From an uncultured Gammaproteobacteria bacterium (GTDB taxonomy: Bacteria > Pseudomonadota > Gammaproteobacteria > JAADHQ01), in NCBI GenBank assembly GCA_947258755.1, contig CAMYJO010000003.1, positions 50,871 through 114,870 of the forward strand: DNA of 64,000 nucleotides, given 5' to 3'. The position numbers were made by a program, and so were the translations under genes. The notes under the pieces were generated by a model, which was given only the letters and a program-made list of their open reading frames with translations, had not been told where the DNA came from and did not search any database. Shown in pieces: positions 6,254 to 54,281 of the stretch; positions within the stretch are counted from its first letter, which is position 1; each line of letters opens with the position of its first letter.

Positions 6254-8371
6254 ATGAAAATACCGCCATCGAACACACATTTTCAGTCCTTGAACGTTAC
6301 CAAGGCCTCTAGCGACGTACGTCACTGGCAACCAGGGCAGCAACTGAAGGCAACGGTGCTGTCGAATGCCACCAACGGACAGGTAAACCTGCGTATTGGC
6401 GCCACAATTCTGACAGCAGAAGTCGATGCGCGCGTCAAAATCGGCGAGAAATTGATGCTTGAGGTCATGTCCACTGGTGACAAACCGGTGCTACAGGGCG
6501 TCAGGAATGACAATATCCAACGCATACTGGAAGCGGCGCTACGCCAGACCCTGCCTCAACAACAGAGCCATGCGCAGCTAATCAGTGACATCAAGGCCTT
6601 ATTACAGCAAAGTCAGCTGCCGGCGCTACCGGCAAAAGTTCAACAGGCATTGAAACAACTCTATCAATCCTTCACCGATCGGGCAGCGCTGAGCACGGCC
6701 GACGGTATCAAGCAGGCACTGAAACAATCCGGCTTGTTTCTGGAAGCAAAATTGACTGGCAAAACGGCTGTCAGTAGCACCGCCCTGGAGCAAGATTTCA
6801 AGGCAGGACTGTTACGCCTGCAAAAGGCAATACAACAACAATTGAATCAGACAGGGGCTGTAGGTTCGACACGACCGTCCGAGGCTGCCGGTAAAAATTA
6901 TCCACCTGCGCCAGCAGCAGCGCCGAGCGTTGCCGCAAACCCTGCTGATGCTGCAACTGTCCGTGCCGCGCCTACGGAAGCCGGCGCTGGCAAACCACTG
7001 ACAACACCGGTACCGCACCTGACACCAGGCAAACCGGTGCCAGCTTCGATCAGTACTAGTAGCACCCCGGTGAGTAATAGTGCCGCTACAGCGAATACCC
7101 AGACCAGTACCCGTGCCCCGCAGTCCACAACGTCGGCTATCCCGGGCAGTATTATCAATAAGCCAGGCACGACAAACCCTGGTAATCCAAATGCTGCAAC
7201 GGCTCCCGGCAGCAGCGCAAATACTCAGGCGGTGACCACAGCAGCGACCAGCACAACAACAAACCCAGCCGTGACACCTGGCTCTGCCAACCCACCGAGT
7301 AATCCGACAAGCGTCAGCGCTCCCGGCAGCAGTGTGAACACTCAGGCCGCGGCCACAACAGCGGCCAGCACAACAACGAATCCGGCCGTGACACCGGGTC
7401 CCGCCAATCCGCCAAGTAACCCCACTGCCGCCAGCACCTCCGCTAGCACCGTTAATACTCAGGCGGCGACCACAGCACCGGCGGCTACAACGACAAGTCC
7501 CGCTAGCACGCTAAATCCAACTACCACTACAAACCCAGCCAATATGGCGCTTGGCAACAACATCAGAAGCGCCGATCGCGTTGCCGTAGACAGCAGTACG
7601 CCGAAACAGGCCATAGCGGCCGCACGGCCACCAACAGACAGTGCCTTAGCAACGCAAAAACCTGCACCGGCTGCGGCTGCACCAACAACGACCCCGGCAA
7701 ACACGACGACACCTGGCCCTGCTAATTTATCCGGTCTACTCCTGCATCAATTAGCGAGCCGCGAATTAGCAGCTCCCGGACAGATAAGCAGAACGAATGC
7801 GCCATTCATTTATAGTGGCAATATGCCGTTCAGAATCGGTCAGGACATCGACAACAGCCGGCCCTCTGCGCGCTTTTCCAAACTCGATAACCTGACCAAA
7901 ATCTTGACACTGTTTCTTAAGGATGCCGACTCCTCGCTGGCTCGCATCCAGCTAAATCAACTGTCACAGTCGCATGTTGAAGCGGAACAAAAACAGTCAT
8001 GGTTGTTTGAAATTCCGGTAAAGCATAAGGATGCAATAGACCTGTTCCAGTTCAAAATAGCAAAAGATCATAAGCATAATCAGGATGAGTCCAACGATGA
8101 ACAAACAGGCTGGACGGTAAACATTTCATTTAATGTCGAGCAATTAGGCCAGGTCCACAGCAAAGTCAACATTCATCAAAAACAGGTATCAATCATTTTC
8201 TGGACAGAACAACAGGAAACTACCTCCACCTTCCAACAGCATTTGCAGACCCTACAGCACGACCTGGAAGATGCAGGCTTGATGGTGACCCATTTGAATT
8301 GCATACAAGGCAAGCCACCAGAGACTACCGATACGCCGATTAATAAAGGCGTTGTGGATGAGCAGGCATGA
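6254..8371 (+). CDS. FliK-like protein (second hook-length-control/ruler paralog) with long Thr/Pro/Ala-rich repeat region and C-terminal Flg_hook domain
   Basis: The 705-aa ORF has a low-complexity centre (TTNPAVTPGSANPPSNPT...). Its C-terminus (WLFEIPVKHKDAIDLFQFKIAKD...WTVNISFNVEQLGQVHSKVNIHQKQVSIIFWTEQ) matches the FliK C-terminal secretion-switch fold. Confidence 0.7.
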   Translation: MKIPPSNTHFQSLNVTKASSDVRHWQPGQQLKATVLSNATNGQVNLRIGATILTAEVDARVKIGEKLMLEVMSTGDKPVLQGVRNDNIQRILEAALRQTLPQQQSHAQLISDIKALLQQSQLPALPAKVQQALKQLYQSFTDRAALSTADGIKQALKQSGLFLEAKLTGKTAVSSTALEQDFKAGLLRLQKAIQQQLNQTGAVGSTRPSEAAGKNYPPAPAAAPSVAANPADAATVRAAPTEAGAGKPLTTPVPHLTPGKPVPASISTSSTPVSNSAATANTQTSTRAPQSTTSAIPGSIINKPGTTNPGNPNAATAPGSSANTQAVTTAATSTTTNPAVTPGSANPPSNPTSVSAPGSSVNTQAAATTAASTTTNPAVTPGPANPPSNPTAASTSASTVNTQAATTAPAATTTSPASTLNPTTTTNPANMALGNNIRSADRVAVDSSTPKQAIAAARPPTDSALATQKPAPAAAAPTTTPANTTTPGPANLSGLLLHQLASRELAAPGQISRTNAPFIYSGNMPFRIGQDIDNSRPSARFSKLDNLTKILTLFLKDADSSLARIQLNQLSQSHVEAEQKQSWLFEIPVKHKDAIDLFQFKIAKDHKHNQDESNDEQTGWTVNISFNVEQLGQVHSKVNIHQKQVSIIFWTEQQETTSTFQQHLQTLQHDLEDAGLMVTHLNCIQGKPPETTDTPINKGVVDEQA
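7202..7510. repeat. About 2.6 tandem copies of a 117-bp (39-aa) repeat inside the fliK-like gene
   Basis: Units begin with gctcccggcagcag at 7202 and 7319. A third, partial unit starts at about 7436. Each encodes APGSS(A/V)NTQA..TTTNPAVTPG(S/P)ANPPSNPT. Confidence 0.8.
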
Positions 8372-8724
8372 GTACCAATAAAAACATGGCCGATATTGCG
8401 GTCACACTTCAGTATGACGGTAAAAATGCGCCCAAGGTCACCGCCAAGGGTGAGGATGAGATTGCCAGACAAATTCGGGAAATCGCCAAAGAACATGATA
8501 TCCCTATGTATGAAGACCAGATCCTGGCCCAGGTACTTTCGCAAATAGACCTTGGTGAAGAAATACCGCGCAGCCTGTATGTCACGGTCGCGCAGGTCAT
8601 CGCATTTTCATATCTGATGGCCGATCGTATTTGCATGTTGCCGCCTGAACGGCCAACCGCAAACGCGACAGCGACAACTGCGTTACTTACCCATGAAAAA
8701 AAGAAGGGGCCAAACGGCCCCTGA
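8368..8724 (+). CDS. FlhB C-terminal-domain-like protein (EscU/YscU/HrcU/FlhB family, stand-alone)
   Basis: The 118-aa ORF contains AVTLQYDGKNAPKVTAKGEDEIARQIREIAKEHDIPMYEDQILAQVL, which resembles the FlhB cytoplasmic-domain region containing the autocleavage site and flanking conserved residues. Its ATGA start overlaps the fliK-like stop. Confidence 0.75.
   Translation: MSTNKNMADIAVTLQYDGKNAPKVTAKGEDEIARQIREIAKEHDIPMYEDQILAQVLSQIDLGEEIPRSLYVTVAQVIAFSYLMADRICMLPPERPTANATATTALLTHEKKKGPNGP
8690..8722 (-). terminator. Rho-independent terminator (hairpin aGGGGCC-aaac-GGCCCCt) shared by convergent operons
   Basis: A 7-bp G+C-rich stem at 8705-8722 is followed on the minus strand by a T-run (plus strand gaaaaaaagaa, 8694-8704). 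It lies between the DUF2802 gene stop and the 3' end of the flhB-like ORF. Confidence 0.65.
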
Positions 8725-10022: not shown

Positions 10023-10709
10023 CTAGGCCCCTTCAGTCAATATCCGCGCCATGACATCAGTATCCAGTAACGCGCACAGCCGTTCCGAGATCGTCCCTGC
10101 CAGCCATGGACGGCGACCAGCCTCGGTGCGCCAACGCACATCTTGCGCCTGCAGGGTGATCACCTCACCGATATCATCACAGGCCAGGCCCCAACGTCCT
10201 TCGTCCATTAACATGATTTTGTTAATACGTTCCTCAGCGGTTGCGACCTGTTGCAGCTGTGCCTGTGGCAAAATCACCTGCGCGGTATCCATGATCTTCA
10301 CATTTTGACCCAGGTGCCGCAGTAGTCCCAGAAAAGCAGCACTATGTCCGGGCATCGGGGTTAAGCTATTGTCCCAGGGAATCACCCCGTTCAATTTCAC
10401 CAAGGGCACGGCCAGACTAATCCCGACCACCTTGAACATCAGGCATTGAAACTCCTGTTCGGCCCAGTCTGGTGCTCCTTTGACCTTCGGTTTTGTCTGA
10501 GCCTGCTCAAGGTTTTCTTCCTTGTCTGTTGCCAGGTCCGGCTGCGCTTGCTGTGCTGGCTCAGACTGTTGCGGAAATGCAGTAATAACATTATCCGGAA
10601 TCTCATCAGGTACTGTCTCTGGTACTTCCAACAACAGGTCTTCGAGGTATGACATTACCGCGCCTTGTTGTTCCATCAGTTTTGCATCTTTGTTATCTGC
10701 GCGACTCAT
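10023..10709 (-). CDS. ParP-like CheW-domain protein (polar chemotaxis-array localisation partner of ParC)
   Basis: The 228-aa ORF has an acidic/Pro-rich N-terminus followed by a CheW-like domain (FKVVGISLAVPLVKLNGVIP...LLRHLGQNVKIMD). It sits between the ParA-like gene and cheW, as PA1463 does in P. aeruginosa and ParP does in V. cholerae. Confidence 0.7.
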   Translation of the reverse strand: MSRADNKDAKLMEQQGAVMSYLEDLLLEVPETVPDEIPDNVITAFPQQSEPAQQAQPDLATDKEENLEQAQTKPKVKGAPDWAEQEFQCLMFKVVGISLAVPLVKLNGVIPWDNSLTPMPGHSAAFLGLLRHLGQNVKIMDTAQVILPQAQLQQVATAEERINKIMLMDEGRWGLACDDIGEVITLQAQDVRWRTEAGRRPWLAGTISERLCALLDTDVMARILTEGA

Positions 10710-11500
10710 GCTCTTACCGCCCTTTTCGTTAAGCTCTTATCTACAAGAATGTCATCCAGCAACGCCGAATAAGCGCGTGCGCCACGCGTACTGACCCGAT
10801 AATGACTTATCGGCTTACCCTCACGACTGGATTCCCGAAAGCGGGTATCTATCGGAATCATTGAATGCCATAAACGATCCGGGTACGTATCGCGTAAAAA
10901 TTGTAAACTCTCTACAGAAGCTCGTGTACGCTTGTCATACATAGTTGGAACAATCGTATAGGCAATGTTGATCGACTTCGCTCGTTCAACCATCTGCAGC
11001 GTATTCAACATACGCTCAAGCCCCTTCATGGCCAGGAATTCGGTCTGCACCGGTATAATTAAATGATCGCAGGCGGCCAAGGCATTCACCATTAACACCC
11101 CCAGCATCGGCGGACAATCAATAAAGATATGATCATAGTGGTCTGATAAATGCTTTACCGCATTGACAACGGCCAGACCCATACCACTTTTAGCGCCTAG
11201 TTGTTTATCCAGTGTGGCGATGGCCGTTGACGCAGGCAAGATATCCAGGTTTTGCAATTTAGTATGACGGATGATCGATTGCGTAAACGCCAGGTCTGTC
11301 TTGCCGGCCTGGAATATATCGTACAGACTGGGTTGAATACTTTCAGGATCAAAACCAAAATAGGATGTCAGTGAACCGTGCGGGTCCATATCAATCAGCA
11401 AGGTTCGTGAGCCATGCAGGACACTCAGACCGGCCAGCGACACGGCCGTCGTTGTCTTGCCGACACCCCCTTTCTGGTTAGCAACACTCCAGATTTTCAT
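10706..11500 (-). CDS. ParC-like ParA/MinD-family ATPase of the chemotaxis cluster
   Basis: The 264-aa ORF has a deviant Walker A (KGGVGKTT). Its ATGA start overlaps the motB stop. Confidence 0.8.
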   Translation of the reverse strand: MKIWSVANQKGGVGKTTTAVSLAGLSVLHGSRTLLIDMDPHGSLTSYFGFDPESIQPSLYDIFQAGKTDLAFTQSIIRHTKLQNLDILPASTAIATLDKQLGAKSGMGLAVVNAVKHLSDHYDHIFIDCPPMLGVLMVNALAACDHLIIPVQTEFLAMKGLERMLNTLQMVERAKSINIAYTIVPTMYDKRTRASVESLQFLRDTYPDRLWHSMIPIDTRFRESSREGKPISHYRVSTRGARAYSALLDDILVDKSLTKRAVRA

Positions 11501-12651: not shown

Positions 12652-13407
12652 TTAGTACAGCAAATAACCTTGTAATTTGATCTCAATATTTCTTGGGTTT
12701 TCACCTTCAGCAATTGAGCTAACACCATCCATGACCATTTCATGGTAACGTGTCTGCGTACTGACCAGGGATTTCAGCTTGTTCGATACTGGCAAAAAAA
12801 ACAGGTTAGCCAGTCCAACACCATAAATTGTAGCGACAAAGGCAACCGCGATACCGGCACCAAGGGCCGCAGGATCAGCGAGGTTATTCATGACGTGAAT
12901 CAAACCCATGACAGCACCAATAATGCCTATCGTCGGCGAATAACCACCCATGGCTTCGTACACCTTTGCCGCATTCATTTGTGACTCATCCATGCTATCG
13001 ATATCAACCTCCAGCACATTGCGTATCGTTTCCGGCTCACTGCCATCGACCAATAATTGCAGCGCCTTCCTGGAAAAATCATGTTGCTCCTTCTCTGCAA
13101 TCGTTTCTAATCCGAGCAGGCCTTGCTTGCGTGCGACTTGACTCCAACTGACAATCTTTCGGATTGTAGCCTCTGCATCGACAGTCGGCGGTGTGAACAC
13201 CCAGCGAAACATGCGCATTGCACGATAAAAAGTGGGCCGCTGGGTCTGCACCATAATCGCGCCCAAGGTTCCGCCAAGGACAATAACCAACGCCGTTAAT
13301 TGCACCAGGGTCTGGGTCTTACCACCTTCCAGTATGTTGCCACCGACAATGGCAGCTATTGCCACCAGCAAGCCCAACATCGTCAATGTGTCAAAAGCCT
13401 TAAACAT
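12652..13407 (-). CDS. motA: Flagellar stator protein MotA/PomA family (MotC-like)
   Basis: The 251-aa ORF has four TM segments. Its start overlaps the cheB stop. Confidence 0.85.
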   Translation of the reverse strand: MFKAFDTLTMLGLLVAIAAIVGGNILEGGKTQTLVQLTALVIVLGGTLGAIMVQTQRPTFYRAMRMFRWVFTPPTVDAEATIRKIVSWSQVARKQGLLGLETIAEKEQHDFSRKALQLLVDGSEPETIRNVLEVDIDSMDESQMNAAKVYEAMGGYSPTIGIIGAVMGLIHVMNNLADPAALGAGIAVAFVATIYGVGLANLFFLPVSNKLKSLVSTQTRYHEMVMDGVSSIAEGENPRNIEIKLQGYLLY

Positions 13408-14500
13408 AACTCACAATCTGTTTACTGACATCCTGCAGTGGCAGAACTTTCTCGGCCAGGCCGGCTTCAACAACGGCCATCGGCATGCCATAGATGACAC
13501 TGGTCTCTTCATCCTGGGCCCAAATGGTTGAACCACCCTGTTTAAGTAACTTGGCACCTTCGCGTCCGTCTGCGCCCATACCAGTAAGGATAATGGCCAG
13601 GGTATTCGCCGGCACCACCTTGGCAATGGATGTCAATGTCATATCAACGCAAGGCTTATAGCTTTGACTAGGATCGCTCTCATGTATGCGTACACGCAAC
13701 ACATCGCCACGACCCTCGATGGTCATTTGTTTACCACCTGGAGCCAATAAAGCCAGACCAGGCTGCAGTTGATCGCCGTCCTTGGCCTCGCGAATATTAA
13801 TTTCGCTCATCTGGTCCAGGCGCTTGGCAAAGGCCTGTGTAAATGACCCTGGCATATGCTGCACAACGACAATAGGTAGCGGGAAGTTGCCCGGTAAAGT
13901 AGTCAATACCTCTTGTAATGCAATCGGGCCTCCAGTGGAGGCACCAATGGCAACCAGTTTACTTTGGGATTTACCTCCGGATACCGCCGAGCGCGCTACT
14001 CTTGTCGCTGCAGAAGCAGGTGTTTGATTCGTGCGAGCAGCTATTCGGGAGGCCGCTGTGCCGCTCCCTGAAGATGGCGCTGGCGCCTTCTTTTTCGGTA
14101 ATCCACGGATACCGATAGACCAGACCCTGGAACAAAGTATTTTAGCTACTTCATCACGATTATTTGATAACTCATCGAAATTTTTTGGTAGGAAATCGAC
14201 TGCACCCGCATCCAGTGCATCAAATGTGGATTGTGCGCCTTCATGCGTCAACGAAGAAAACATTAAAATCGGGATCGGTGAAATGGACATAATGCGACGA
14301 ACGGCAGTAATACCATCCATCACAGGCATTTCTATATCCATGGTGATTACATCTGGCTTTAACTCCTGCGCTTGCTTGATCGCCTCGCGTCCATTAGCTG
14401 CGCTACCGACAACCTCGATGCGAGCATCTACCTTCAACATTTCCGTCACACGGCGTCGAAAAAATCCCGAATCGTCTACAACCAATACACGTACAGACAT
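13400..14500 (-). CDS. cheB: Chemotaxis methylesterase/response regulator CheB
   Basis: The 366-aa ORF has a REC domain (VLVVDDSGFFRR...MDIEMPVMDG) and a CheB methylesterase domain (GASTGGP..., HMPGSFT). Confidence 0.9.
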   Translation of the reverse strand: MSVRVLVVDDSGFFRRRVTEMLKVDARIEVVGSAANGREAIKQAQELKPDVITMDIEMPVMDGITAVRRIMSISPIPILMFSSLTHEGAQSTFDALDAGAVDFLPKNFDELSNNRDEVAKILCSRVWSIGIRGLPKKKAPAPSSGSGTAASRIAARTNQTPASAATRVARSAVSGGKSQSKLVAIGASTGGPIALQEVLTTLPGNFPLPIVVVQHMPGSFTQAFAKRLDQMSEINIREAKDGDQLQPGLALLAPGGKQMTIEGRGDVLRVRIHESDPSQSYKPCVDMTLTSIAKVVPANTLAIILTGMGADGREGAKLLKQGGSTIWAQDEETSVIYGMPMAVVEAGLAEKVLPLQDVSKQIVSYV

Positions 14501-14511
14501 TCATTTTGTCC

Positions 14512-14742
14512 TTAGCGATTCGTATGTGCCCGCATCAAGCTTGGTACGTCAAGTATCAAAGCTATACGGCCATCACCAGTGATTGTTGCACCGGCAAACC
14601 CATCAAGACCATGCAACAAATGGCCTAACGGTTTAATAACCACTTCTTCCTGACCTACAACCGTCAACCACATTGGTCTTGAAGGATTCAAGATGGAAAA
14701 TCTCATTAACACTGGACAAAGGCAGGGCGAAATTACGCGCAC
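14512..14742 (-). other. CheA P5-domain C-terminal remnant in the +1 frame relative to cheA
   Basis: The 76-aa ORF contains VVGQEEVVIKPLGHLLHGLDGFAGATITGDGRIALILDVPSLM, the conserved end of the CheA CheW-like domain. It is out of frame with the 14633..16411 ORF. Confidence 0.7.
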
Positions 14743-16411
14743 CGACCTTAACCATCAATGTCGGCAGGATAGCCAATGTCAAAGGCAATTTAATACTGAG
14801 CGTCGTACCACTTCCCAGGGTTGAATCGATATCAATTGAACCATTCAATTGTGCAATACGCGTCTTCACCACGTCCATGCCGACGCCGCGTCCTGAGACG
14901 TCAGAAATTTCTGTTTTCGTTGAGAAGCCGGGATGGAAAATCAATTCGTAACATTCTTTATCTTCCAAACGCGCCGCGCTTTCACTGTCCATCAGGCCTT
15001 TTTCAACAGCCTTTTCCCTGAGCACATCCGGGTCCATCCCCGCACCATCATCGGTAATCATCAACAGGATGTGGTCGCCCTCCTGGGCTGCAGACAAAAC
15101 AACGGTACCGGCACGCGGTTTACCGTTCTCATCGCGTTTATCTGGCATCTCTATACCATGATCGACCGAGTTGCGCACCAGATGCACTAATGGGTCGGCC
15201 AAGGCCTCGACCAGGTTTTTATCCAAATCTGTTTCTTCACCAACCAGTTCCAGATTAACTTCTTTTTTCAGGCTGCGAGCCAGATCGCGTACCACGCGTG
15301 GGAAACGTCCGAACACCTTTTTGATAGGCTGCATACGCGTCTTCATCACGGCTGATTGCAGATCGGATGTCACTATATCCAGGTTGGAAACCGCTTTGGA
15401 AACCTGTTCGTCGTTCATGGCCTCCTTCAGCGTATGCAGGCGATTACGCACCAACACCAACTCACCGACCATATTCATAATGTCATCAAGCCGGCGTGTA
15501 TCCACACGTACGGTTGCCTCAGCAACCGGTTTTGCAGGCTGCTTGGTCGCTCCGGCATCTTTCGCATCAGCTTTACTGGCCACCTTTTTAACAGGCGCTT
15601 TTTTCTCAGGCTTTTTCTCAGCAGCAGGCTCGGGTGCTGCAGCAGCTGGTTTATCTGCCGCTGCTTTGCTGCTTGGCGCTTTGCCACTACCATGCATTTG
15701 ATCCAGCATATTTTCAAATTCATCGTCTGAAATCTCATCAGAAGCTGGAGCTTTGTTATCTTCTTTTTTCGCCGCTGCGGCCGGTTTATCGCCCTCACCT
15801 TGCAACTGATCCAGCAGGGCCTCAAACTCATCATCAGAAATTTCATCCGATCCGGCCTTGTCTTCGGTAGCAGGTTTCGCTGCCTTTTTGTCAGCTTGTA
15901 CAGTATCCAGCAAGGCCTCAAATTCATCGTCGGTAATATCGCCTTCGGAAGATTCCTCAGCACTTTCCGCCTGCGCCGGCTCTGGTTCCGGGGCCACTTC
16001 TGCCACTGGCTCTGCGTCGTCGGATTCATTGGTCATTTTTTCCAACGCAACCAATAATTCATCGGAGGCCGCTGTAGGCTCCTCGCCCGAGGTGATTTCT
16101 TCAAACTGGCCGTTTAGGATATCGAGCACTTCAAGGAAACGGTCCATCATGCTCGCATCGAGGACGGTTTCTCCTGTGCGTAACACATTGAATACGTCTT
16201 CCGCCCTGTGGCAGACTGCCACCATCGGATCCAGCCCGAGAAAGCCTGCGCCACCCTTGATGGTATGAAAACCGCGAAATACCGCGTTAATCATATCCAG
16301 GTCTTCTGCGTTTTGTTCAAGCTCTACGAGCTGCTCATTCAGCTGCTCAAGGATCTCCCCTGCTTCTACGAGGAAGTCCTGTAATATTTCGTCATCCGCT
16401 TCAATTGCCAC
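14633..16411 (-). CDS. cheA: Chemotaxis histidine kinase CheA; the reading frame ends prematurely inside the P5 domain (see finding)
   Basis: It has a P1 HPt domain (FRGFHTIKGGAGF) and an acidic linker with three DDEFE(A/N)(L/M)LD repeats. It has P3/P4 HATPase domains and the start of P5 (MVKVGARNFALPLSSVNEIFHLESFKTNVVDG), then 8 codons and a stop. Confidence 0.8.
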   Translation of the reverse strand: MAIEADDEILQDFLVEAGEILEQLNEQLVELEQNAEDLDMINAVFRGFHTIKGGAGFLGLDPMVAVCHRAEDVFNVLRTGETVLDASMMDRFLEVLDILNGQFEEITSGEEPTAASDELLVALEKMTNESDDAEPVAEVAPEPEPAQAESAEESSEGDITDDEFEALLDTVQADKKAAKPATEDKAGSDEISDDEFEALLDQLQGEGDKPAAAAKKEDNKAPASDEISDDEFENMLDQMHGSGKAPSSKAAADKPAAAAPEPAAEKKPEKKAPVKKVASKADAKDAGATKQPAKPVAEATVRVDTRRLDDIMNMVGELVLVRNRLHTLKEAMNDEQVSKAVSNLDIVTSDLQSAVMKTRMQPIKKVFGRFPRVVRDLARSLKKEVNLELVGEETDLDKNLVEALADPLVHLVRNSVDHGIEMPDKRDENGKPRAGTVVLSAAQEGDHILLMITDDGAGMDPDVLREKAVEKGLMDSESAARLEDKECYELIFHPGFSTKTEISDVSGRGVGMDVVKTRIAQLNGSIDIDSTLGSGTTLSIKLPLTLAILPTLMVKVGARNFALPLSSVNEIFHLESFKTNVVDGCRSGRSGY

Positions 16412-22668: not shown

Positions 22669-22767
22669 AATGACCCCTAATTAAAACACTTATAAAACAT
22701 ACTGTTAGCGACTCTATTTGTGCAGAGACCTGGAATTCGTCAAAAACCGGTCACTCTAGCTAACTAG

Positions 22768-22783
22768 TGCAATAACTGTACCG
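22768..22783 (-). promoter_or_regulatory. Sigma54 promoter for flhA (minus strand CGGTAC-N5-TTGCA)
   Basis: The reverse complement of tgcaataactgtaccg is CGGTACAGTTATTGCA, with the GG and GC elements at the canonical 12-nt offset. It sits about 100 nt upstream of the flhA ATG. Confidence 0.55.
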
Positions 22784-22791
22784 GGATTTAA

Positions 22792-22912
<121 letters not shown>

Positions 22913-22913
22913 G

Positions 22914-23054
22914 TGTAGGAGCGGCCCTTGGCCGCGATAAAACTCAGACTTGTAGGGGGTTTAATAAGAATAAAGTACTTAACACTAGCTAAGTCAAACC
23001 TTTCGCTAGGTTTGTATCTCTACCTGATTATCGCGGCCAAGGGCCGCTCCTACA
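22914..23054. mobile_element. REP/BIME-like element: perfect 27-bp inverted repeats (TGTAGGAGCGGCCCTTGGCCGCGATAA) flanking an 87-bp spacer
   Basis: The left arm at 22914-22940 is the exact reverse complement of the right arm at 23028-23054. Each arm contains its own GCGGCC-ctt-GGCCGC hairpin. The ends resemble REP ...TTATC...GGCCTACA termini. Confidence 0.45.
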
Positions 23055-23117
23055 GTTAGCTTGAAAGCTATTGGCTTGGTTCGTGGTGAGCTTATACCTT
23101 GCCTAAGTTGACTTGCC

Positions 23118-23152
23118 TAGCCACTCGCCACTCGCCACTCGCCACTCGCCAC
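23118..23152. repeat. 5 tandem heptamers TAGCCAC/TCGCCAC (inverse orientation of the GTGGCTA array), abutting the flhB stop codon
   Basis: tagccac tcgccac x4 lies at 23118-23152 and is the reverse complement of GTGGCTA/GTGGCGA. Confidence 0.9.
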
Positions 23153-24294
23153 TATTTTTTACCTTTCCACATGTCATCGGGTACATCCAGATCGGTTGGC
23201 AGATCAGGCGTTTGCATGCCTGCGGAGGTCGCCTGCTTGAGTTGGTAGATATAGGCCAGGATTTGCGCCACGGCCAGATACAGGCGTGACGGTATTTCCT
23301 GCTCCAACTCAGTTGAGAAGTAAATGGCCCTGGCCAGCGGAGGTGCTGAGACGATAGGCACTTCATTTTCTGCGGCGATTTCCCTGATGCGTGCCGCCAC
23401 CAGTTCCGTTCCTTTGGCCACCAGTTTCGGTGCGCCCATCTTGCCGTCTTCATACTTCAATGCAATTGCGTAATGCGTCGGGTTGGTAATGACCACATCG
23501 GCCTTCGGCACCTCTTCCATCATGCGGCGCATAGCAGCCTCCATTTGCAGACCGCGTATTTTACTCTTGACCTCAGGACTACCTTCCGTACTCTTACGCT
23601 CTTCCTTTACTTCCTTCTTGGTCATGCGTTGCTGCTTTTTATGCTGCCAAATCTGGAAGGGAATATCGATGGCCGAAATAATAATGATCGTCGAACAGAC
23701 CGCAAGAAAATACCAGGCGGTCATCTCTGTTGTCTTCGAATATGCAGTAGCAAATTCGTAATGACCGATACGCAGGATATCATCAAACAATTTAATGATA
23801 AGCAGCGCACCCAAGCCCCCTACCAATCCCACTTTTAGCAGCGATTTGGCCAACTCCATCAAGCCCTGGGTGCCAAAAAGTTTTTTAGCTCCCTTAAGCG
23901 GGCTCATATTCGACAACTTGGGTTTGATCTTTTTAGCGGAAAAAGTAAAACCGCCAATCATCATGGGGCTAAGAAATACAGAGATGACCATCAAGCTAAT
24001 CAAGGGTGAAATCAGAATAAAGGCATCCAGTAATGTACTAAACAGGTTCTTAATTGCCATCATCGGCTCGTAGATCATACGCCGATCAATACTCAAGGAC
24101 GAGCGCACTATTTCCGCCAGGCCATCACCGATGCCACGCCCCATGGTCAACAAGCCGATTGCCGATGCCATCAGGATCAAAGTCGTGTTTAATTCACGTG
24201 ACCGCGGAACCTCCCCCTTTTGTTTCGATTCCTGCAGCCGTTTTGCGGTGGGTTCCTCACTTTTTTCTTGACCGTCTTGGTTTTCTGCAGCCAT
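23152..24294 (-). CDS. flhB: Flagellar export switch protein FlhB
   Basis: The 380-aa ORF has an N-terminus EKSEEPTAKRLQESKQKGEVPRSRE. It also has the NPTH autocleavage motif (VVITNPTHYAIAL). Confidence 0.95.
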   Translation of the reverse strand: MAAENQDGQEKSEEPTAKRLQESKQKGEVPRSRELNTTLILMASAIGLLTMGRGIGDGLAEIVRSSLSIDRRMIYEPMMAIKNLFSTLLDAFILISPLISLMVISVFLSPMMIGGFTFSAKKIKPKLSNMSPLKGAKKLFGTQGLMELAKSLLKVGLVGGLGALLIIKLFDDILRIGHYEFATAYSKTTEMTAWYFLAVCSTIIIISAIDIPFQIWQHKKQQRMTKKEVKEERKSTEGSPEVKSKIRGLQMEAAMRRMMEEVPKADVVITNPTHYAIALKYEDGKMGAPKLVAKGTELVAARIREIAAENEVPIVSAPPLARAIYFSTELEQEIPSRLYLAVAQILAYIYQLKQATSAGMQTPDLPTDLDVPDDMWKGKK

Positions 24295-29085: not shown

Positions 29086-30765
29086 TCAGGCATAATAATC
29101 GATAGCTGATAGTACGCCGTCATGCTCCATGTCGGTCATGTTATTGGCAAGGCTTTCTGGTTCTTCAGACATTGAATCAGACTGGTTTTGCGCAAAATGA
29201 CCCGGCGCCCTTTTATCATCCTGACGTTGTTGCGTTTCAGTTTCTCGTTCACCACTGGAAACATTGGCCTGCTCCATTTTCACCCCAGCCTCCTGCATCA
29301 TTTCACGTAGCCTTGGCAAGGTGGCCTCAATCGCATCGCGCACGGCACCATGTTGCGATACGAAGCTGATATTGGCCTGCTCATTCTGTATCGTTATCTT
29401 TACGTCTATCGTACCGAGATTTCCCGGCGTCAGACGTAATTGCGCATTCTGTATACCTTCCTTACTCATCCATACCATACGGCTACCAAATTCATCTCCC
29501 CATTTTGGCTTATCGATGGGCTGCTGTAGCAACAGATTGGTGTTTGTTAATTTCATCCCATCCAGGCTTGCCCTGGCCGCCGGTTCTGTCAGTGCCGCTG
29601 CAGCTGCTGTCGGCATTTCTTTTCCTAGTTGGGCCAGTCCTTTTTCTACCATGCGACTGAAATCGGAAGCAGACTCCGTTGCTGTCATCCTGGCTTCCGT
29701 TAATAACGGCTGCGAACCCTGTTCGGCCTGACTGTTCATAAAGTGTTCGCTGCCTGCTGATTGCTGCGCTAGCGGATTCTGAGCAAGCTGGTTTGAGACT
29801 GCTGGGTTAGGCGCTGACAATGGTCCACGCTGAGTTTGCATAGGTTCGACTAATTGCGCTGCTACCTGCATATCCGCAGCTGGAATTTGCGTCGAAAAAG
29901 TATAAGCTGCATGTGGGACTGCAGGTCTTAATATTGGCGAGCTTGGGTGCTCACTGTTTATTATCGCCGCCTCTTTCGCTAACTGCTGAGCTTCCGTTTT
30001 TACTTGTATGTCCCTGGCGGCATCAGTATTGCTGACTGCCACTGCAGCTCCGGGCTTGGTGCTTATATTGGCTGTCGCTGATAGATCCTCGGTTTGGGTG
30101 ACTGGCGATGTTGTCACGGCACCGTTATTAATGATGGCAGTTACAGGCGCGATAGCAGCATTGCTTTGATTCTCAGGTCGATTAGTAGCAATGCCGGTAG
30201 ACGTAATGTCTGCGCTGACAGTCGCAGTTGGCCCTTTCGCGGCTATCTGTGCGGCCTGGCTTTCATCAGCGCTTAATGCAACGGTTGACGTCAGCGGGCT
30301 TGTGTCAGCGATGAGCTTGTCTGCAGTATCTATGTGATGAGTGCCAGCCACTACTGACGTTGAAACCTGGGTGTTGATGTGCACGGATACCGCTTCTTGT
30401 ACCTCAATACTGGCTATCAGGGATTCGGCCGTACTCATCAACGCCTGTTGTGGCTCGACTTGAACGCTTAACGCTGGCATTGATTCGCTATCGGCATCTG
30501 TGGCGGCTATAGGCGGCAGACTTTTCCCCGTCAGCGGCAGTTCTTGCCTCAATTCTGGCAATGCAATCTGCAATAGTTGCTGAGCGCCTTGCTCCGCGAG
30601 ACCTGGCGGACGACTGCCCAGGTGGCCATGCTGCGCTAGGGAAGTTTCCAAATGATCATTAAATTCAGATAGTTGCGACCCAATTATAGGGGCAGACAGG
30701 CCTTTGTCTTGGCCTGAATCGGCAGTCGCTGCGGTATTAGCTACCGTGATCGGTAATAAATTCAT
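29086..30765 (-). CDS. fliK: Flagellar hook-length control protein FliK
   Basis: The C-terminal Flg_hook domain is LRLTPGNLGTIDVKITIQNEQANISFVSQHGAVRDAIE. The start was chosen at MNLLPITV. Confidence 0.85.
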   Translation of the reverse strand: MNLLPITVANTAATADSGQDKGLSAPIIGSQLSEFNDHLETSLAQHGHLGSRPPGLAEQGAQQLLQIALPELRQELPLTGKSLPPIAATDADSESMPALSVQVEPQQALMSTAESLIASIEVQEAVSVHINTQVSTSVVAGTHHIDTADKLIADTSPLTSTVALSADESQAAQIAAKGPTATVSADITSTGIATNRPENQSNAAIAPVTAIINNGAVTTSPVTQTEDLSATANISTKPGAAVAVSNTDAARDIQVKTEAQQLAKEAAIINSEHPSSPILRPAVPHAAYTFSTQIPAADMQVAAQLVEPMQTQRGPLSAPNPAVSNQLAQNPLAQQSAGSEHFMNSQAEQGSQPLLTEARMTATESASDFSRMVEKGLAQLGKEMPTAAAAALTEPAARASLDGMKLTNTNLLLQQPIDKPKWGDEFGSRMVWMSKEGIQNAQLRLTPGNLGTIDVKITIQNEQANISFVSQHGAVRDAIEATLPRLREMMQEAGVKMEQANVSSGERETETQQRQDDKRAPGHFAQNQSDSMSEEPESLANNMTDMEHDGVLSAIDYYA

Positions 30766-30836
30766 ATCGGGCTCACTCGTCTGAAAGTCTCTTGTCAGTA
30801 TCAGGAGCAAGTACTATGCCAATTGTGCCCTATCCC

Positions 30837-40888: not shown

Positions 40889-41431
40889 TTAGCTGGGTTT
40901 GTTGTTTTTACGACTGGCGGCAACCTGGCGGCGATGATTCAGGAAGATAAATTTTTGCATTAATTCCTGCACAGCGCTATCCACATGACACAGATTGAGC
41001 CGGCATAGACCCTGCTCGACATCACTGACTTCGCCATACAGACTCAATGCCGATACTGAATAGGGGTGCAGATACAACTGCAAAGAGACCAGTTGGCCTT
41101 GCTGTAACTCCTGTGCGGCAGCTGCTTCCCACTGCACACTATCGCTAGTCAATTGCACGCGGTATTGTTGTATGTCCTGCTGGTTCTGCACCATGGATCC
41201 TAACAGGCTCAGCAACAAATCAAGTTTCTTTTCTATTCTTGCTGTATCGCGATGATCACCGACATGCTCATCCATACCCGTGAGGGAGAATTCATCCAGT
41301 AACAAGGCCTGCTTTAAAATTTCAAGATTGTTTTCGCGGGTATGCGAGAGCGTATCATTATCTGGAGGGGTGTCGATCAGCTGCCATTGTAAAGGCAGTC
41401 TGGCTTGATAATTTATATTACTTTCATCCAT
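40889..41431 (-). CDS. Hypothetical protein between fliT-like and fleQ
   Basis: The 180-aa ORF has no recognisable motif that I can assert. It shows a weak PilZ-like resemblance in its C-terminal half. Confidence 0.5.
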   Translation of the reverse strand: MDESNINYQARLPLQWQLIDTPPDNDTLSHTRENNLEILKQALLLDEFSLTGMDEHVGDHRDTARIEKKLDLLLSLLGSMVQNQQDIQQYRVQLTSDSVQWEAAAAQELQQGQLVSLQLYLHPYSVSALSLYGEVSDVEQGLCRLNLCHVDSAVQELMQKFIFLNHRRQVAASRKNNKPS

Positions 41432-44234: not shown

Positions 44235-45074
44235 TTACTGTAGCAGTGACAATGCAGCCTGTGGCAAGGTATTAGCCTGAGCCAGGATAGAGATACCAGC
44301 TTGTTGCAATATCTGCGAACGAGTCAGGTTAGCTGTCTCTGCAGCAAAGTCTGCGTCCTGAATACGGCTACGTGCAGCTGTCAGTGATTCATTGAAAGAT
44401 TCAAGGTTAGATATAACTGCCTCGAACCTGTTCTGTACCGCACCAAATGTAGCACGTTGGTTAGTGATTTCCGTGATAGCAGTATCAACACTGGCAATAG
44501 CGGCAGAAGCAGTAGCTGATGTAGTTACATCTACTGTACCTGTTGCAGCCAGATCTCCACTATAACCTGCGATACCTGTAACCGTAGTGGTATTAACAGA
44601 TACACGGTTGGTGTCTGTACCTTCGTAACCGACCTGGAAGGTCAATGTGCTAGTCGCACTCAACAGGGCCTGTCCATTGAACTCGGAAGTCTGGATATTA
44701 CGTGACAATTCCTGTGTCAGCTGATCAACCTCTTTCTGAACCTGTGCACGCTCTGTATCACCGATCGCACCATTCGCTGCCTGTACCGCCAGCTCACGAA
44801 TACGCTGCAGGTTATCAGCAATCTGACCGAGTGATGTTTCAGCAGTCTGACCCAGGGAAATACCATCACCGGCATTTCGGATCGCAACCGCGTTACCACG
44901 GATCTGCTTGGTAAAGCCTTCAGCAATGGCCAGACCGGATGCATCGTCCTTAGCGCTGTTGATACGCAGACCAGATGAAAGACGTTGTAATGAAGTTTGT
45001 AATGAAGACTGGGTCTTGTTCAGGTTCCTGATGGAATTGATTGACGCCAGGTTACTATTGACTACTAATGGCAT
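44235..45074 (-). CDS. fliC: Flagellin FliC (short, about 279 aa; Ser/Thr-rich central segment)
   Basis: The start was chosen at MPLVVNSNLASIN, with a GGAGG RBS. D0/D1 are conserved at the N- and C-termini (LSLLQ end). Confidence 0.9.
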   Translation of the reverse strand: MPLVVNSNLASINSIRNLNKTQSSLQTSLQRLSSGLRINSAKDDASGLAIAEGFTKQIRGNAVAIRNAGDGISLGQTAETSLGQIADNLQRIRELAVQAANGAIGDTERAQVQKEVDQLTQELSRNIQTSEFNGQALLSATSTLTFQVGYEGTDTNRVSVNTTTVTGIAGYSGDLAATGTVDVTTSATASAAIASVDTAITEITNQRATFGAVQNRFEAVISNLESFNESLTAARSRIQDADFAAETANLTRSQILQQAGISILAQANTLPQAALSLLQ

Positions 45075-45192
45075 GATAAGCCTCCAAACTCTCAAGAACC
45101 GACAAACTTAGTTATATATATAGATTGTCAGTCCTGTTTTTCTTAGCGGATATAGTAATCACATTCGTTACTATTCACCGCTCCCACACAGT

Positions 45193-45419: not shown

Positions 45420-48400
45420 TTACTTCACAGCAGAACGTGCGTGCGTATGCTGAGAATCCATACCTTTTATATTGAGCGCCCGTGCCCAGGCATCGATGTT
45501 ACTACTGAGCATAAAGTTGTCCCGCACCCATTTTTGTAAAACATCACCCTCTTGATAAGCGGCATCGAGATCATAAATGCGCTCACGAATGGCTTCAATC
45601 CAGGCCTCTTTTTTGTTCTGCACATGTTTGACCGGGGCATTCTGGTAGGGATAGATATCCGTGCATATAACAGGCCAACCAAGTATTCCGTACTCTAACA
45701 GCCTTAAATTACTTTTTGCCTCATTAAAGGGATGTTGTGCCAATGGCGCAATGGCGACATCCAGATCAAGGCTGGCCAGTTTTTCAGCATAACCGGTAAA
45801 CGACAGCACAAACTCATGTTCTTCGGCAATGTCATCCTTTATTTCCTCAGGACACATGCCAAAGAATACCCAATCCACCTCATGTGCCGTTTCCTTGACA
45901 ACATCGATGATAAAGGCAAGGTCATCTGCATGTTGTTGCGCACCCGCCCAGCCAACTCGTGGCTTGTTACTTCTACCTCGTTTCGAAGTCAGTTCCGCCC
46001 AAACATCGTCCTCCAGACAGTTAGGAAGTACCTGGATATCATTGATCATGTTATGGCACAGGTCAGCTAATGGCTCAGTCGATACAATCAGACGATCACA
46101 AAAGCCCAGTGCATTGCGTAAGCGCTTTCTTGGTTCTGATGGAATCGCTTTTCTGAAATTGTTCCCCTCTGGCACGTTGGTGATCAGATCATCCAGGGTA
46201 AACACCTTGAATACATCGAGGTATTTTTTGTATTCTTCCAGAGTTACAAGTGAGTTCTTGGCAATACCTGCATGCGAAATAACGGTATCTGCTCCTGAGC
46301 GGGCCAGCTCCGTTAGTCTTAGTATACGTTGCTCATTAAATCGGTACGCATGTGTGCATTCGGTTTGCGCCAGCCCCGCCTTGGCTATTTGCCTTAGCGG
46401 TCCACGGATTCGATATTCGCCACTACCACCAAACAACGGCATGCCAATAATTTTCTCCCTGTCTTGAAAAACCGGATCCCAATTGATAATTACACCGGTT
46501 TCGACCTGGTAACTATTATTGATTAAACTGAGATGACGATTATAGGCTGGATCATTGGCAATTTCAGACATCCAGGTAGACATCATATACTGACATTCAG
46601 CCCTGAAACCGTCTTCGTGCTGCTTACGTTGCTCATGGGCACGATCTATTTGCGATGCATTTCCATAATGCAATAATGTTGCAAATGGCGTCCACACGAT
46701 ACGATGACCTGTTTCTCTGATTTTAAGACACAGGTCCACATCATTATAGGAAACCTTGAGATTCTCGGCATCCATACCATCAACTGCATCGTAGACCGAT
46801 TTTTTAACCAGCATACATGCGCCAGTGACCGCGGAATAATTCTGATCAACCTGCAGGCGACCCATATAACCGCCTTGCTTAATATCTGCATTACCAAGAT
46901 AGGGATGACCGGCAACGCCGTCCATACCCAAGACGACACCGGCATGCTGAATGTCAGATGTTTCAGGATAGGCCAGGCGCGCGCCGACAACACCTACGTC
47001 TTCACGCATTGCATATGACATCATCCTGTCCAACCAATTATCCTGAATGATTTTGGTATCATTATTCAGGAATAACAGATAATCGCCATTGGCTTCTGCA
47101 GCTGCCATATTGGATATGGCCGCATAATTAAACGCCTCGGGATATTTCAACACGCGTACGTGGTTATCAGGAATATTATGCATATCCTCAAGGTATGCCA
47201 GGCTGTCCACATCTGTTGTCTGATTATCGATAACAAGCACTTCATAATTTTGATATTGCGTGCGCTCCAATAAGGAGTTCAGACAACCGGTGATACAGTC
47301 GAATTTATCTTTAGTTGGTATAATGATGCTGACCAAGGGGCTATGATCATACAGATACTCTACTCTGATAGTATCCTGTAGGTAGCCATCATGAATGTTG
47401 GCCTTGATCTTTTTGGTTTGCAAGAAATCGCTGACCAGTTCTTTCCTGTAATGATGCGTATCCAGTCTGCTCAGCTGTGTCGGTACGTGATACAGGATGT
47501 TATCAATATGCAATATGCTCTTCTCATCATGATGAGCAAGTACTTTCAGGAGCATGTCGTAATGCTCAAGACCAAAACAACGACTGAGCCCGCCAATTTC
47601 CGTCAAAACAGCATTTTTGATCATACAAACCGGACCGATATAATCACTTGACAGCAAATAATCATAATTAAAATCCGGCTTCAACTGAGGGCTCTGATAT
47701 GAGCCATCGGCTTCGATAAGATCGTGATCAAAATAAACAAAGCCGATATTATTGTTAAGATTAATATGATCAACAAATGTATTCAGAAAATGCGCTTCAA
47801 ATTCCATTCCAGGAAGAATGACCGATAGCCAATCGTTATCAGCCATAGCAGTCATCGATGTAAGACTTGCATCCAGATCCTGGTCATTGACGACCTGACA
47901 CCACTCAATACTACCTTTGGAGGTATTCAGCATGCCTGGCCGAGGCAATTCACTGATCACCTTAAGCGTCCAGCCTGTGTAGAATGATAACTCAAGGCTT
48001 GCCATGGTCGCACGCAGCATGTCTTCCTGCCCTGTACTCAGATACATGACAAACGTGACTGCCGGCCTGCTACTCCATGTATACTGCATCCTTTCTGCCA
48101 TTAATTGTGCGTCAATCTCTTCGATCGAATGCCCTTTTTGCCACTGCCTATACTGCTCACGCCGCGAATACAATTCATGAACGCGCTGCAACTCCGATAT
48201 AGATACTGTTTTGTCGCCGGACAGAGAATCGTCCGTGATCCAGTGCAGTGTTGTAAATTTTGTTATACGTTTAAGCTTATATTTCTCACCCACACGTAAC
48301 CAGAATTCCTGATCACCTATGGCCTTGTATGATTCATCGAAATACCCCAACTCGGCATGTAGTGACTTTCTCCACATCGGGTGTGGACCAACCATCGGCC

Positions 48401-51400
48401 TGGACAATAATTCATTGAATTCATACTTGGGCCAAACATAGGTACCGCTGACAGAATTTTCCTCAAAAGTTTCATGCGGAACTGGTGTCAGAAAAGCATT
48501 ACCATAAGCAATAGCAACTTCGAGATCGTCATCCAGTGCACGCATAAGCTGTTCACATGCCTCGCGATGCAGGCGGTCATTGGTACTACAGGATATAATA
48601 TATTTACCAGATGCATTCCTGACAGCGATATTCCAAGCCTCATAGATGCCAATACGTTCAGGTGTACGTATATATTTTATATTGGAATATTGTTTCTGGT
48701 ATTCCTCGACAATTGATTTTTCATTCTCGGGAGAGTTTGCATCGACAATAACAATTTCAATATTGTCCGCAATCGTTTGCGACAACAAGTCATCAAGGCA
48801 TTCACGCATAAATGACTCTGATGCGTAGGTTGATACGATAGCACTAACGACAGTGCCTGAAAGTCTTGTGGCACTACTGCTGCGATCCTGCTGAGCATTA
48901 ATCTTTGCTTCGGTCGCAGACAGCCGACTTGCCTCTTCATGCTGACCACTCTGCTTAAGAATTTCTGCCAGGTTCTTTAAAATGACATCATCATTTGGAT
49001 TGATTCCGTAGCCCATTCTGAGATATTTCACGGCCGTCAACAGATCCTGACACTGCCAAGCTAAGATACCGAGATTATTATAAAATTCACTGTTATAGGG
49101 CCAAGACTCTATCGCCGCTATAAAACATTGATGCGCCTGATCAACTTCACTCGAATAGAAGGCCTGCTCACCCTGCTCATTTAGTTTAGCCGCCTCATTG
49201 TAACTGGCTTCAAACTCATCTATAAAGGCCCTATTGACAAATAGTGCGTCACCATGGACCCCGGTATTCATCATGTCTTCAAAACCAATAAACACAAAGT
49301 CTTCATGCAGGTATTCAACTACATCATCCAGTAAACGTGCACCTTCATACATTTCCACGGTACTGGCTTCAGTATAAATCACCTTGACGTTTGCCAGCAG
49401 TTTCCTGTCAATGCCTGTGAGCACCATATATTCCGCGCCCTGAACATCAATGTATAACATGTCTGGCACTTCAAGATCTGAATGCTCAATGATGTGCTGT
49501 AACGAAACCTGATCGACTTCAATTTCCCCACGCATATCTACGTCAGGAAATATATTCTTATGCTCTTTCATTGGTAACAGAGAACTGGAATATAAATTAT
49601 TACTGATATTAAAAGTCACCTTGCCAACGCGATCGGATACGGCATAAGGAAGCACCTTAACCCTTGAATCATATTGGAAAGCCTGATTCAATTGTTTGTA
49701 CACGTCCGGAATCGGTTCGAATAACGCAATACTTTCCATGTTCTTATACAATGAGAAGAACCATTCACGCTCCTCAAACAGGTGCACGCCGACAAAGAAA
49801 ATATTTTTGATGTTGTCCGCAATATATGCCCTTTCCATATAGGCTTTAAGTGTTTCATTAGCCGCCAGGCTGCGTAAGTTCAGGCCTTCATTACTCTCTT
49901 CCTCCCTATCCTCGACCTTGTCATCTATTTTCTCTATTTGAACAGGCTCATTTGTATCTGCACTTGACGAGGTTATTTCTTTAAACGCATTAGCCACATG
50001 CTCATCATCTGGTTTTGCATCCAGATAAACCTGGCAAATGTTAATGGCATCGGCATGCTCACCCATAGCCATCAGCAGGTTAGTTAAATTAAGCACGGTA
50101 TACTTGTTATATTGATCAAGCGCATAGGCCTTACCGAGATACGCCAATGCCGTACTGGCATCGTCTCCTTCCCAGTAGTAAACAGCGAGGTTATTCAAGG
50201 TGTCGACATTATGTTCAGATATGCTCAGGGCTTCATTCAGCTTTTCCAGCGCGCCCTGCCTGTTTCCGGACTGGTACAGCTCCTCAGCAAACTTATTCAG
50301 TTCTGCCAGCTTGGCTTCGTCACCCGGAAGCGAATGCTTCGACGTTGCTTCGATACTATCATTTGTATCAGCAATAAGCGCCTGATTGTGAAGGCGTGTC
50401 TGACCTTTAATATTTTGCAAGGCCATTTCCATCAACAGACCAGATGCTATTTTCGCCATATTATCCCAGGAAAAATGTGCGGCTCTGCGTAGTCCGGCTA
50501 TCGCCAACTGCTTTCTGTATTCCGGCTTCTGTATGTCCTGTAACGCTGACAGCATCGCTGTGACATCATTGGCTGCTACATAATAGGCCGCATCTCCAGC
50601 CACTTCCGGTATAGAACCAGCCTGACAGGTGATTATAGGACATTCGCAAGACATAGCCTCAAGCAAAGGCATGCCAAATCCTTCATACAAGGACGGATAA
50701 ACCAGGGCCAGAGCCGCGCTATAACAGGCAACCAGATCATTTTCGGGCAATGACAGCACATGAACTCTACTGCCATGCTGACATTCCTTTAATTCTGTCT
50801 CAAGCTCAGAATCCCCGCCAACACAGACAATCTCGAAATCTTCGCTATTTTCGAGTAATTCCATGGCCTTGAAAAATTGTACTGCATTCTTGTAATTTTC
50901 ACGCCTGCCAACCAACATGAAAAATGGCTTTGTTATGCCGTATTTTTGTCGAAAGGCATTACAACGTTCTTCTCCGGAATTTCTAAAATGTTCGCCGACG
51001 CCATTATAAGTAATATATAAAGGCTTATTGTTGACATGTGGAAAATATTTGTACAAATCATCTGCAGTATTATTTGAAACTGACATATATGCAGAGGCAT
51101 ACTCTATGGCTTGATGCTTTTCTTTCCATACGGGAGACGACATATCCCAACCGAAGATTTCTGGTATCATGTCGTGCACCAGCAAGACCGACGGCGTACT
51201 GACTGGGTGAGAATAATAAGTGGAAACGAACACATCGGCTTCCAGCTCATCGCAGATATCCTGCAATAATCGCCTGTCATGTTCACCGCAGCCTGTATAG
51301 GCCGGCGCATCAATATAATTGATCCCACGTATTCTGTCTGCGGTGAATCCACGGTCTATGACGTGTACATATCTTGAAAAGCCACTCTGCAACCAGCTTT

Positions 51401-53126: not shown

Positions 53127-53182
53127 CTGGCCCTCTCTTTGATAGCCTGTTATTTGTCTCATTTTTTCGTGTTTTGATACGA

Positions 53183-53198
53183 TGCAAGAATTGATCCA
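53183..53198 (-). promoter_or_regulatory. Sigma54-like promoter for the giant GT/MT gene (TGGATC-N5-TTGCA)
   Basis: The reverse complement of tgcaagaattgatcca is TGGATCAATTCTTGCA. The -12 element is perfect and the -24 element has two mismatches. It lies about 55 nt upstream of the chosen ATG. Confidence 0.45.
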
Positions 53199-53387
53199 CA
53201 ATATAAATAATCTATAATTACAATTACTTATAATTTTTAAGATCGTGTGACTATCAATGACGCCGGTTTTTTGTCACCGCAAAACCAACACGTTAAACAA
53301 TCGATGGATGAACTTTTTGAGTATCGCAAGAAATCACTTATACGTGCTGATTGTGCCCAGCAGGGGCATAAAGCCGTCTATACAGTC

Positions 53388-54281
53388 TTAGAGGAAGTTA
53401 AATAGAGAGAGGCCTTGTACACGCACATAGGACTGCTGTGCCGCTTCAAGACCTGCACGTCTCAAATTGAGTTCAGTAATGGCCTCTGCCAGGTCCAGAT
53501 CTTCCAGATCAGATAATAACTCCTTACTCTGAACGACAACGCCTTCATTGACATTATTTTGCACATCCACTGATTTCAGACGTGCGCCTGTCCTTGACCT
53601 GAAGTTCGATAAATTCTCCATCACTGCATCAATCTGCTCAAGATCAGTCCCTGATTGCGTATCAGACTCAAGATTAACGGCGAGGTTATAAATGGCACTG
53701 AAGGCATTTTCTGACGTATTTTCGACATTAAAGAACAGGTCAAAGCCATTATCACTGTCTTCTATATTCCGGCTTGGTCCAATTGCAACCCGCCTTTGTC
53801 CCTGATCACCGGCATAACTGTAGCTACCACTACCATTGTCACTAACCGGCGCAACTTCGCCATTAAAGCCGGAAAACAGGTATTCACCACTAACATCCTT
53901 GCGTCCGGACAGACTGATGATTTCATCCAGATGCTGACGTATCTCTGCCGCAATTGCATCGCGATTCTCCTGTCCCTGGGTATCATTCAGTCCCTGCACC
54001 GCGAGTTCCCTGATGCGCTGATAGACATCAACCATACTGGTCAATGTAATATCCTGGGACTCCAGGCGTGCCTGGACCATATCGGCGTTGCGCTGATACT
54101 GTTCGTTAATCTCCACGACCTGGCGTAAATCGAGAATCCGTGCCGATCCGGCTGGATCTTCTGAAGGTGTTAATATCCGTCGGCCTGTTGAAACCCTTTG
54201 CTGAATATCACTAAGGCGTTCCTGCTGTTGTAACATCCTGCTGACGCTTTCCATCTGGAATTGTGCTGTTGAGACTCTCAT
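53388..54281 (-). CDS. flgL: Hook-filament junction protein FlgL
   Basis: The 297-aa ORF has flagellin-like N- and C-terminal helices. Confidence 0.9.
   Translation of the reverse strand: MRVSTAQFQMESVSRMLQQQERLSDIQQRVSTGRRILTPSEDPAGSARILDLRQVVEINEQYQRNADMVQARLESQDITLTSMVDVYQRIRELAVQGLNDTQGQENRDAIAAEIRQHLDEIISLSGRKDVSGEYLFSGFNGEVAPVSDNGSGSYSYAGDQGQRRVAIGPSRNIEDSDNGFDLFFNVENTSENAFSAIYNLAVNLESDTQSGTDLEQIDAVMENLSNFRSRTGARLKSVDVQNNVNEGVVVQSKELLSDLEDLDLAEAITELNLRRAGLEAAQQSYVRVQGLSLFNFL

Follow-up and report, generated by a model that had tools for sequence, protein, structure and literature searches.

The window analysed here, a 64-kb stretch of DNA from an uncultured gammaproteobacterium, contains one CheA-type kinase gene and no other; the initial annotation had said as much of the che locus, and this holds across the entire window. 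The reading frame of this cheA gene is broken before the end of its last domain. The question that the locus raises is whether the break is a real mutation in the organism and, if so, whether it is recent or marks a lineage that has long since given up chemotaxis, or whether it arose when the genome was assembled.

Reading frames and domains of cheA

The gene is read on the minus strand, and three features describe its present state:

14633..16411, minus strand: truncated cheA ORF of 592 aa with a GTG start, the frame running from 16411 to 14633
14636..14659, minus strand: the eight out-of-frame codons (CRSGRSGY) that the cheA frame reads past the junction, from the ORF translation
14512..14661, minus strand: 3′ end of cheA, left stranded in the +1 frame; it reads VVGQEEVVIKPLGHLLHGLDGFAGATITGDGRIALILDVPSLMRAHTNR and finishes at the original TAA stop, 14514–14512; these are the last strands of P5 and they match the CheW model

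Just before the junction the cheA frame reads ...FKTNVVDG (in a longer form ...LPLTLAILPTLMVKVGARNFALPLSSVNEIFHLESFKTNVVDG, followed by CRSGRSGY), and the translated ORF ends with ...KVGARNFALPLSSVNEIFHLESFKTNVVDG, then the same eight residues and a TAA stop codon at 14635–14633. An overlapping ORF in the +1 frame (14512..14742, minus strand, 76 aa) reads ...MWLTVVGQEEVVIKPLGHLLHGLDGFAGATITGDGRIALILDVPSLMRAHTNR* and has its stop at 14514–14512. As frames and stops are deterministic features of the sequence, chance is not at issue here.

The 592-aa ORF comprises P1 (Hpt), a linker in which DEFExLLD is repeated three times, P3 and P4, then some 33 residues of P5 and the eight out-of-frame codons. 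Pfam searches identified P1 (PF01627, Hpt; residues 8–97, E=1.3e-17), the P3 dimerisation domain (PF02895, H-kinase_dim; residues 299–358, E=3.4e-14) and P4 (PF02518, HATPase_c; residues 406–545, E=5.9e-18), and gave no match to the CheW domain in this ORF. The protein therefore has the P1, P3 and P4 domains of a CheA, and what it lacks is one defining feature, a complete in-frame P5 behind P4. The 76-aa ORF matches positions 88–135 only of the 138 positions of the CheW model, whereas the intact ortholog P0002 covers positions 3–135. The frames and the Pfam matches thus agree with the initial annotation, which had placed the break within P5, with a stop at 14633, and had recognised the conserved end of P5 in the +1 frame; this end is now seen to run as far as the original stop at 14514–14512.

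Size and position of the deletion

A protein search returned an identical 592-aa truncated protein (P0001), which is on record from a public NCBI assembly; the lesion is therefore already present in deposited sequence and did not arise in the making of the window. The nearest intact relative in this search was P0002 (707 aa, 83% identical), and there was no protein between 83% and 100% identity. P0002 comes from L081 (GCA_947258655.1), which has the gene order flhA-flhF-fleN-fliA-cheY-cheZ-cheA-cheB-motC-motD-parA-cheW-cheW, the same as in the window. A degenerate DNA pattern for ESFKTNVVDG picked out another seven metagenome contigs from this clade; all seven have an intact cheA and none is from the same species. 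Together with L081 they form a set of eight clade relatives, with 75–81% nucleotide identity to the window. Scanning the genome collection with the P3–P5a part of the protein gave at least 80 loci, the best being 80% identical among the matches listed.

The extent of the lesion is most clearly shown by the spacing between two conserved stretches of P5. From the Asp codon of NVVDG to the Gly codon of GQEEVV there are 168 nt in all eight relatives compared with 7 nt (GGTTGTA) in the window, where the junction sequence GAC-GGTTGTA-GGTCAG lies at 14665–14650; the conserved stretches abut and their frames are one base apart. The difference corresponds to a single out-of-frame deletion of 161 bp:

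14659..14663, minus strand: deletion junction, at which 161 bp are absent compared with all relatives (pairwise alignment to L081, BLASTN and spacing count)

The BLASTN comparison used window positions 14401–15500 as the query and 11 loci as subjects, namely the eight clade relatives and the more distant L001–L003. For the eight clade relatives the alignments break at query position 839/840, with about 160 subject bases skipped, and for L001–L003 the break falls within a few bases of the same position. The lesion is thus one 161-bp deletion in the P5 region of cheA, with its junction within 14663–14659. The breakpoint is ambiguous over GG(T), a microhomology of 2–3 nt at most, and no repeat of assembler k-mer length flanks it. 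As the relatives carry GTTGAYGG and CAGTTGACGGT near each other, we also considered two separate deletions, or a breakpoint placed 9 nt deeper, and rejected both because a single 161-bp event suffices.

A length of 161 bp (3n+2) puts the remainder of the gene out of frame, and about 54 residues are lost from the centre of P5. The deleted segment, QLTVMVRDKAMPLFYL...GSQRIGFVVSQ, corresponds to positions ∼36–87 of the Pfam CheW model, and what follows is discarded by the frameshift. In the alignment to the Thermotoga maritima CheA P5 structures 2CH4, 4JPB and 1B3Q, the deleted part is the centre of the domain.

The initial annotation had proposed that the two conserved stretches were separated by one extra nucleotide around 14655–14665, that 170–190 bp had been deleted with a shift of frame, and that about 60 residues were missing. 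A frameshifting internal deletion in the middle of P5 and frames that lie one base apart are both upheld, but the stretches abut, the breakpoint is narrowed to 14663–14659, and the estimates of size were slightly high: the ortholog alignment that had been suggested for sizing the gap gives 161 bp and about 54 residues. It had also been allowed that orthologs might naturally lack this subdomain. This is not the case, as the segment is present in all eight clade relatives and in 14 more distant orthologs, each of which (14 of 14, as translated) has 53–62 residues between VDG and GQEEVV. A natural CheA variant without the P5 subdomain was therefore rejected, there being no ortholog among the 8 clade and 14 wider sequences that shares the shortened architecture.

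Origin and age of the lesion

The stranded 3′ end retains a record of the selection acting on it. Over 47 codons of the tail, the window differs from L081 by 22 synonymous codon differences and one nonsynonymous difference, the latter at the variable last-but-one residue. The pattern is as in the 281 upstream in-frame codons, where there are 139 synonymous and nine nonsynonymous differences. For the 43 conserved codons of the tail, the encoded protein is identical to that of seven of the eight relatives, and the changes unique to the window when compared with all eight are six synonymous and none nonsynonymous. Six of six silent changes would have a probability of ∼2e-4 if the tail were neutral, by our own rough estimate in which about three quarters of random changes are assumed to be nonsynonymous. 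Nearly all of the window's branch was thus spent under purifying selection, and from these counts the deletion would fill under about one sixth of that branch, a rough bound that is again our own estimate. In the comparison to L081 we saw no relaxed selection on the tail and no second lesion in cheA, cheB, cheY, cheZ or cheW. Judged by these codon changes, the lesion is very recent, or it never occurred in the organism.

We regard as probable the first of these, namely that the strain or population sequenced carries a genuine cheA-null allele of very recent date, produced by the 161-bp deletion in P5. Its most likely origin would be a spontaneous deletion between very short homologies, which would have cut about 54 residues from the centre of P5 and shifted the frame. 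The product would be a 592-aa CheA with P1, P3 and P4 and about 33 of the ∼135 P5 residues, and its carrier would be flagellated and blind to gradients via this pathway. Microhomology of 2–3 nt is typical of spontaneous deletions, of which it marks a common class, and not of repeat-collapse misassembly, and short out-of-frame deletions are a familiar and frequent cause of gene inactivation. Both flanks are from the same gene, in the correct order and orientation, and no Ns lie between them. On this evidence we infer that the deletion is biological instead of an assembly error.

An assembly, scaffolding or amplification artefact, with cheA intact in the organism and 161 bp lost when contigs were joined, is possible but the less likely account. 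Possible routes to it are a low-coverage gap that was closed or stripped of its Ns, a mis-resolved bubble between strain variants, or a chimeric junction from whole-genome amplification. The undecayed tail, perfectly conserved as protein with no nonsynonymous change, is also what an artefact would give, and the neighbouring genes are all intact. In addition, the species is known from a single assembly that is apparently unannotated and probably a MAG, its closest relatives are MAGs or metagenome contigs, and the protein collection and the JGI metagenomes contained no same-species sequence besides the source assembly and no independent genome with the allele. Against this, the breakpoint has only the 2–3 nt of microhomology, with no direct repeat able to mislead a k-mer or overlap assembler; the flanks are properly ordered and oriented parts of one gene; and the usual sequencing errors are indels of 1–2 nt, not of 161 bp. 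The rest of the window is also free of such damage: no frameshift was seen in any of the other ORFs checked across the 64 kb, about 50 in number and all intact (30 flagellar, 11 around cheA and about 10 others). The 30 flagellar ORFs have end-to-end Pfam coverage (flhA, flhB, fliR to fliE, fleQ, fleS, fleR, fliS, fliD, flaG, fliC and flgL to flgC), which argues that the assembly is not generally error-prone.

The initial annotation had suggested a non-chemotactic but flagellated lineage, that is, an old and fixed pseudogene in a lineage that gave up chemotaxis and kept its flagella. Two observations speak for this reading: cheA is the sole CheA-type kinase in the window, and the flagellar genes are all intact. 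However, we find this reading very improbable: cheA is intact, with the 168-nt spacing, in every one of the eight clade relatives; the six synonymous and zero nonsynonymous window-specific changes place the tail under purifying selection; and cheA, cheB, cheY, cheZ and cheW carry no second lesion. The event is thus better described, with a fair degree of confidence, as a null allele at the level of the strain or population than as an old pseudogene.

The least credible reading is that the truncation is a functional design, in which either a CheA without P5 acts as a receptor-independent kinase or ribosomal frameshifting restores the tail; P1, P3 and P4 are intact and the rare codons AGG and AGA follow the junction, but even a +1-shifted product would be without the ∼54 residues of the P5 core, none of the relatives has the arrangement, no slippery or stimulatory element could be recognised and Rfam gave no match in the window. 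Programmed frameshifting and separate translation of the tail were both rejected, since the stranded ORF lacks any start codon of its own preceded by a Shine-Dalgarno sequence and the P5 core would still be absent.

Returning to the recent null allele, a dominant cheA-null allele beside a flagellar regulon whose more than 40 genes are fully intact would be somewhat unexpected in a free-living population. We think it highly unlikely that the deletion is both real and dominant in a natural population, with complete, selected flagella kept and receptor-coupled chemotaxis just switched off. If it were so, this might have happened, for example, as the population took up life with a host or bound to aggregates, and the P1–P4 remnant might provide a constant basal level of CheY-P that sets a fixed reversal frequency.

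For annotation, we suggest that the cheA of the window be labelled as a frameshifted pseudogene or possible assembly error, and that chemotaxis in this genome be scored neither as present nor as evolutionarily lost without a check of the reads. If the deletion is real, it would add another case of a null allele that arose spontaneously in a behavioural pathway with high costs; the lesion raises no new question on chemotaxis or genome evolution.

Predicted function and the surrounding genes

In classical work on Escherichia coli, the C-terminal portion of CheA is said to mediate its regulation by the transducers and CheW. P5, the regulatory domain of CheA, provides the contacts with the receptor tip and with CheW; its interface 1 lies inside a core unit and its interface 2 joins one unit to another, and together they build the CheA/CheW rings (PMC13098124). 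With only about 33 residues of P5, the truncated CheA would therefore be unable to join arrays. By analogy, it would at best show basal, receptor-independent autophosphorylation, outside chemoreceptor control, and the cell is predicted to be flagellated and motile but non-chemotactic via this pathway.

Apart from the lack of a complete in-frame P5, the gene is an unremarkable ortholog of the Pseudomonas/Vibrio-type flagellar CheA. The window has the identical gene order to that type of flagellar cluster (cheY-cheZ-cheA-cheB-motC-motD-parC-parP/cheW-cheW), and its protein shares the Hpt, dimerisation and HATPase_c domains; the difference is in P5, which is interrupted, with CheW positions ∼36–87 deleted and the rest out of frame. 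As in the engineered P5-less CheA proteins of E. coli, the product would be essentially P1–P4, with basal autophosphorylation expected and coupling lost. Unlike those truncations, the lesion here is natural or assembly-borne and is known from the sequence of an uncultured gammaproteobacterium, and the protein might be destabilised by the roughly 33 P5 residues that it keeps and the eight foreign ones. Motility and chemotaxis genes of bacterial isolates and host-adapted lineages also carry loss-of-function alleles, which are similar in having one disruptive indel in an otherwise intact regulon, but the window differs from host-adapted lineages in having no accompanying decay or sign of host restriction, and the allele is in one assembly.

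The linker between P1 and P3 (residues ∼156–237, window ∼15690–15965, minus strand) has three copies of D-E-I-S/T-D-D-E-F-E-x-L-L-D, a motif that is conserved in the L081 ortholog. Pfam gave no match to a P2 domain in the linker and only spurious SHOCT matches there. The motif is similar to the peptides that bind CheY at the N-terminus of FliM and the C-terminus of CheZ, and the repeats may be a putative CheY-docking site in place of P2.

Upstream of cheA are cheY and cheZ, and downstream are cheB, motCD, parA and cheW. Compared with L081, the 11 flanking genes (flhF, fleN, fliA, cheY, cheZ, cheB, motC, motD, a parA-like gene and two cheW-like genes) are collinear and complete in length, with 73–98% identity. 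A scan for promoters and terminators around cheA gave nothing bearing on the lesion above shuffled expectation, and scans of the window for Rfam families and tRNAs returned none. The closest of the flanking genes to the lesion is cheB:

13400..14500, minus strand: cheB, full length and directly downstream of cheA, 83% identical to the CheB of L081

The original cheA stop lies 11 nt before the cheB ATG at 14500, and the cheB ribosome-binding site (AAGGA) overlaps that stop. With the premature cheA stop now 133 nt upstream, cheB would keep its own AAGGA site and lose its translational coupling to cheA.

Further downstream on the minus strand (10023–11500), a gene for a ParA-like ATPase (10706–11500) is followed by one for a CheW-like protein of 228 aa that is extended at its N-terminus (10023–10709); by sequence, this pair matches ParC/ParP. 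In Vibrio, chemotaxis arrays are held at the cell pole by ParC/ParP (PMC5706961), and ParP is reported to integrate into arrays via MCPs and CheA. Because ParP integrates via CheA, a CheA without P5 could affect the ParC/ParP system too.

Several other features of the window were noted. A second FliK-like protein (6254–8371, plus strand, 705 aa), with a C-terminal Flg_hook domain, is encoded before a stand-alone protein of 118 aa that consists of an FlhB C-terminal domain (8368–8724, plus strand). These two genes are divergent from the che genes and additional to the canonical fliK (29086–30810) and flhB (23152–24294), and a Bac_export_2 fragment lies at the equivalent place in L081. The intergenic stretch between flhB and flhA (22669–23151) is 483 nt, unusually long for an otherwise tightly packed cluster, and its coding strand has no ORF of more than 50 aa. 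Immediately downstream from fliT and fliS is a gene for a 180-aa PilZ-type protein (40889–41431, minus strand) with an atypical (tPilZ) c-di-GMP receptor domain, a possible c-di-GMP input to the flagellar system. Finally, between fliC (44235–45095) and flgL (53388–54281) there is a giant ORF of 2593 aa (45420–53201, minus strand). Its first ∼750 aa gave no Pfam match; the remainder has a GT1 glycosyltransferase domain (aa 750–899), TPR repeats, an FkbM-type methyltransferase (aa 1154–1300) and two GT2 glycosyltransferase regions (aa 1453–1564 and 1957–2179). Judged by its domains, this ORF resembles a flagellin-glycosylation island whose parts are fused in a single very large polypeptide.
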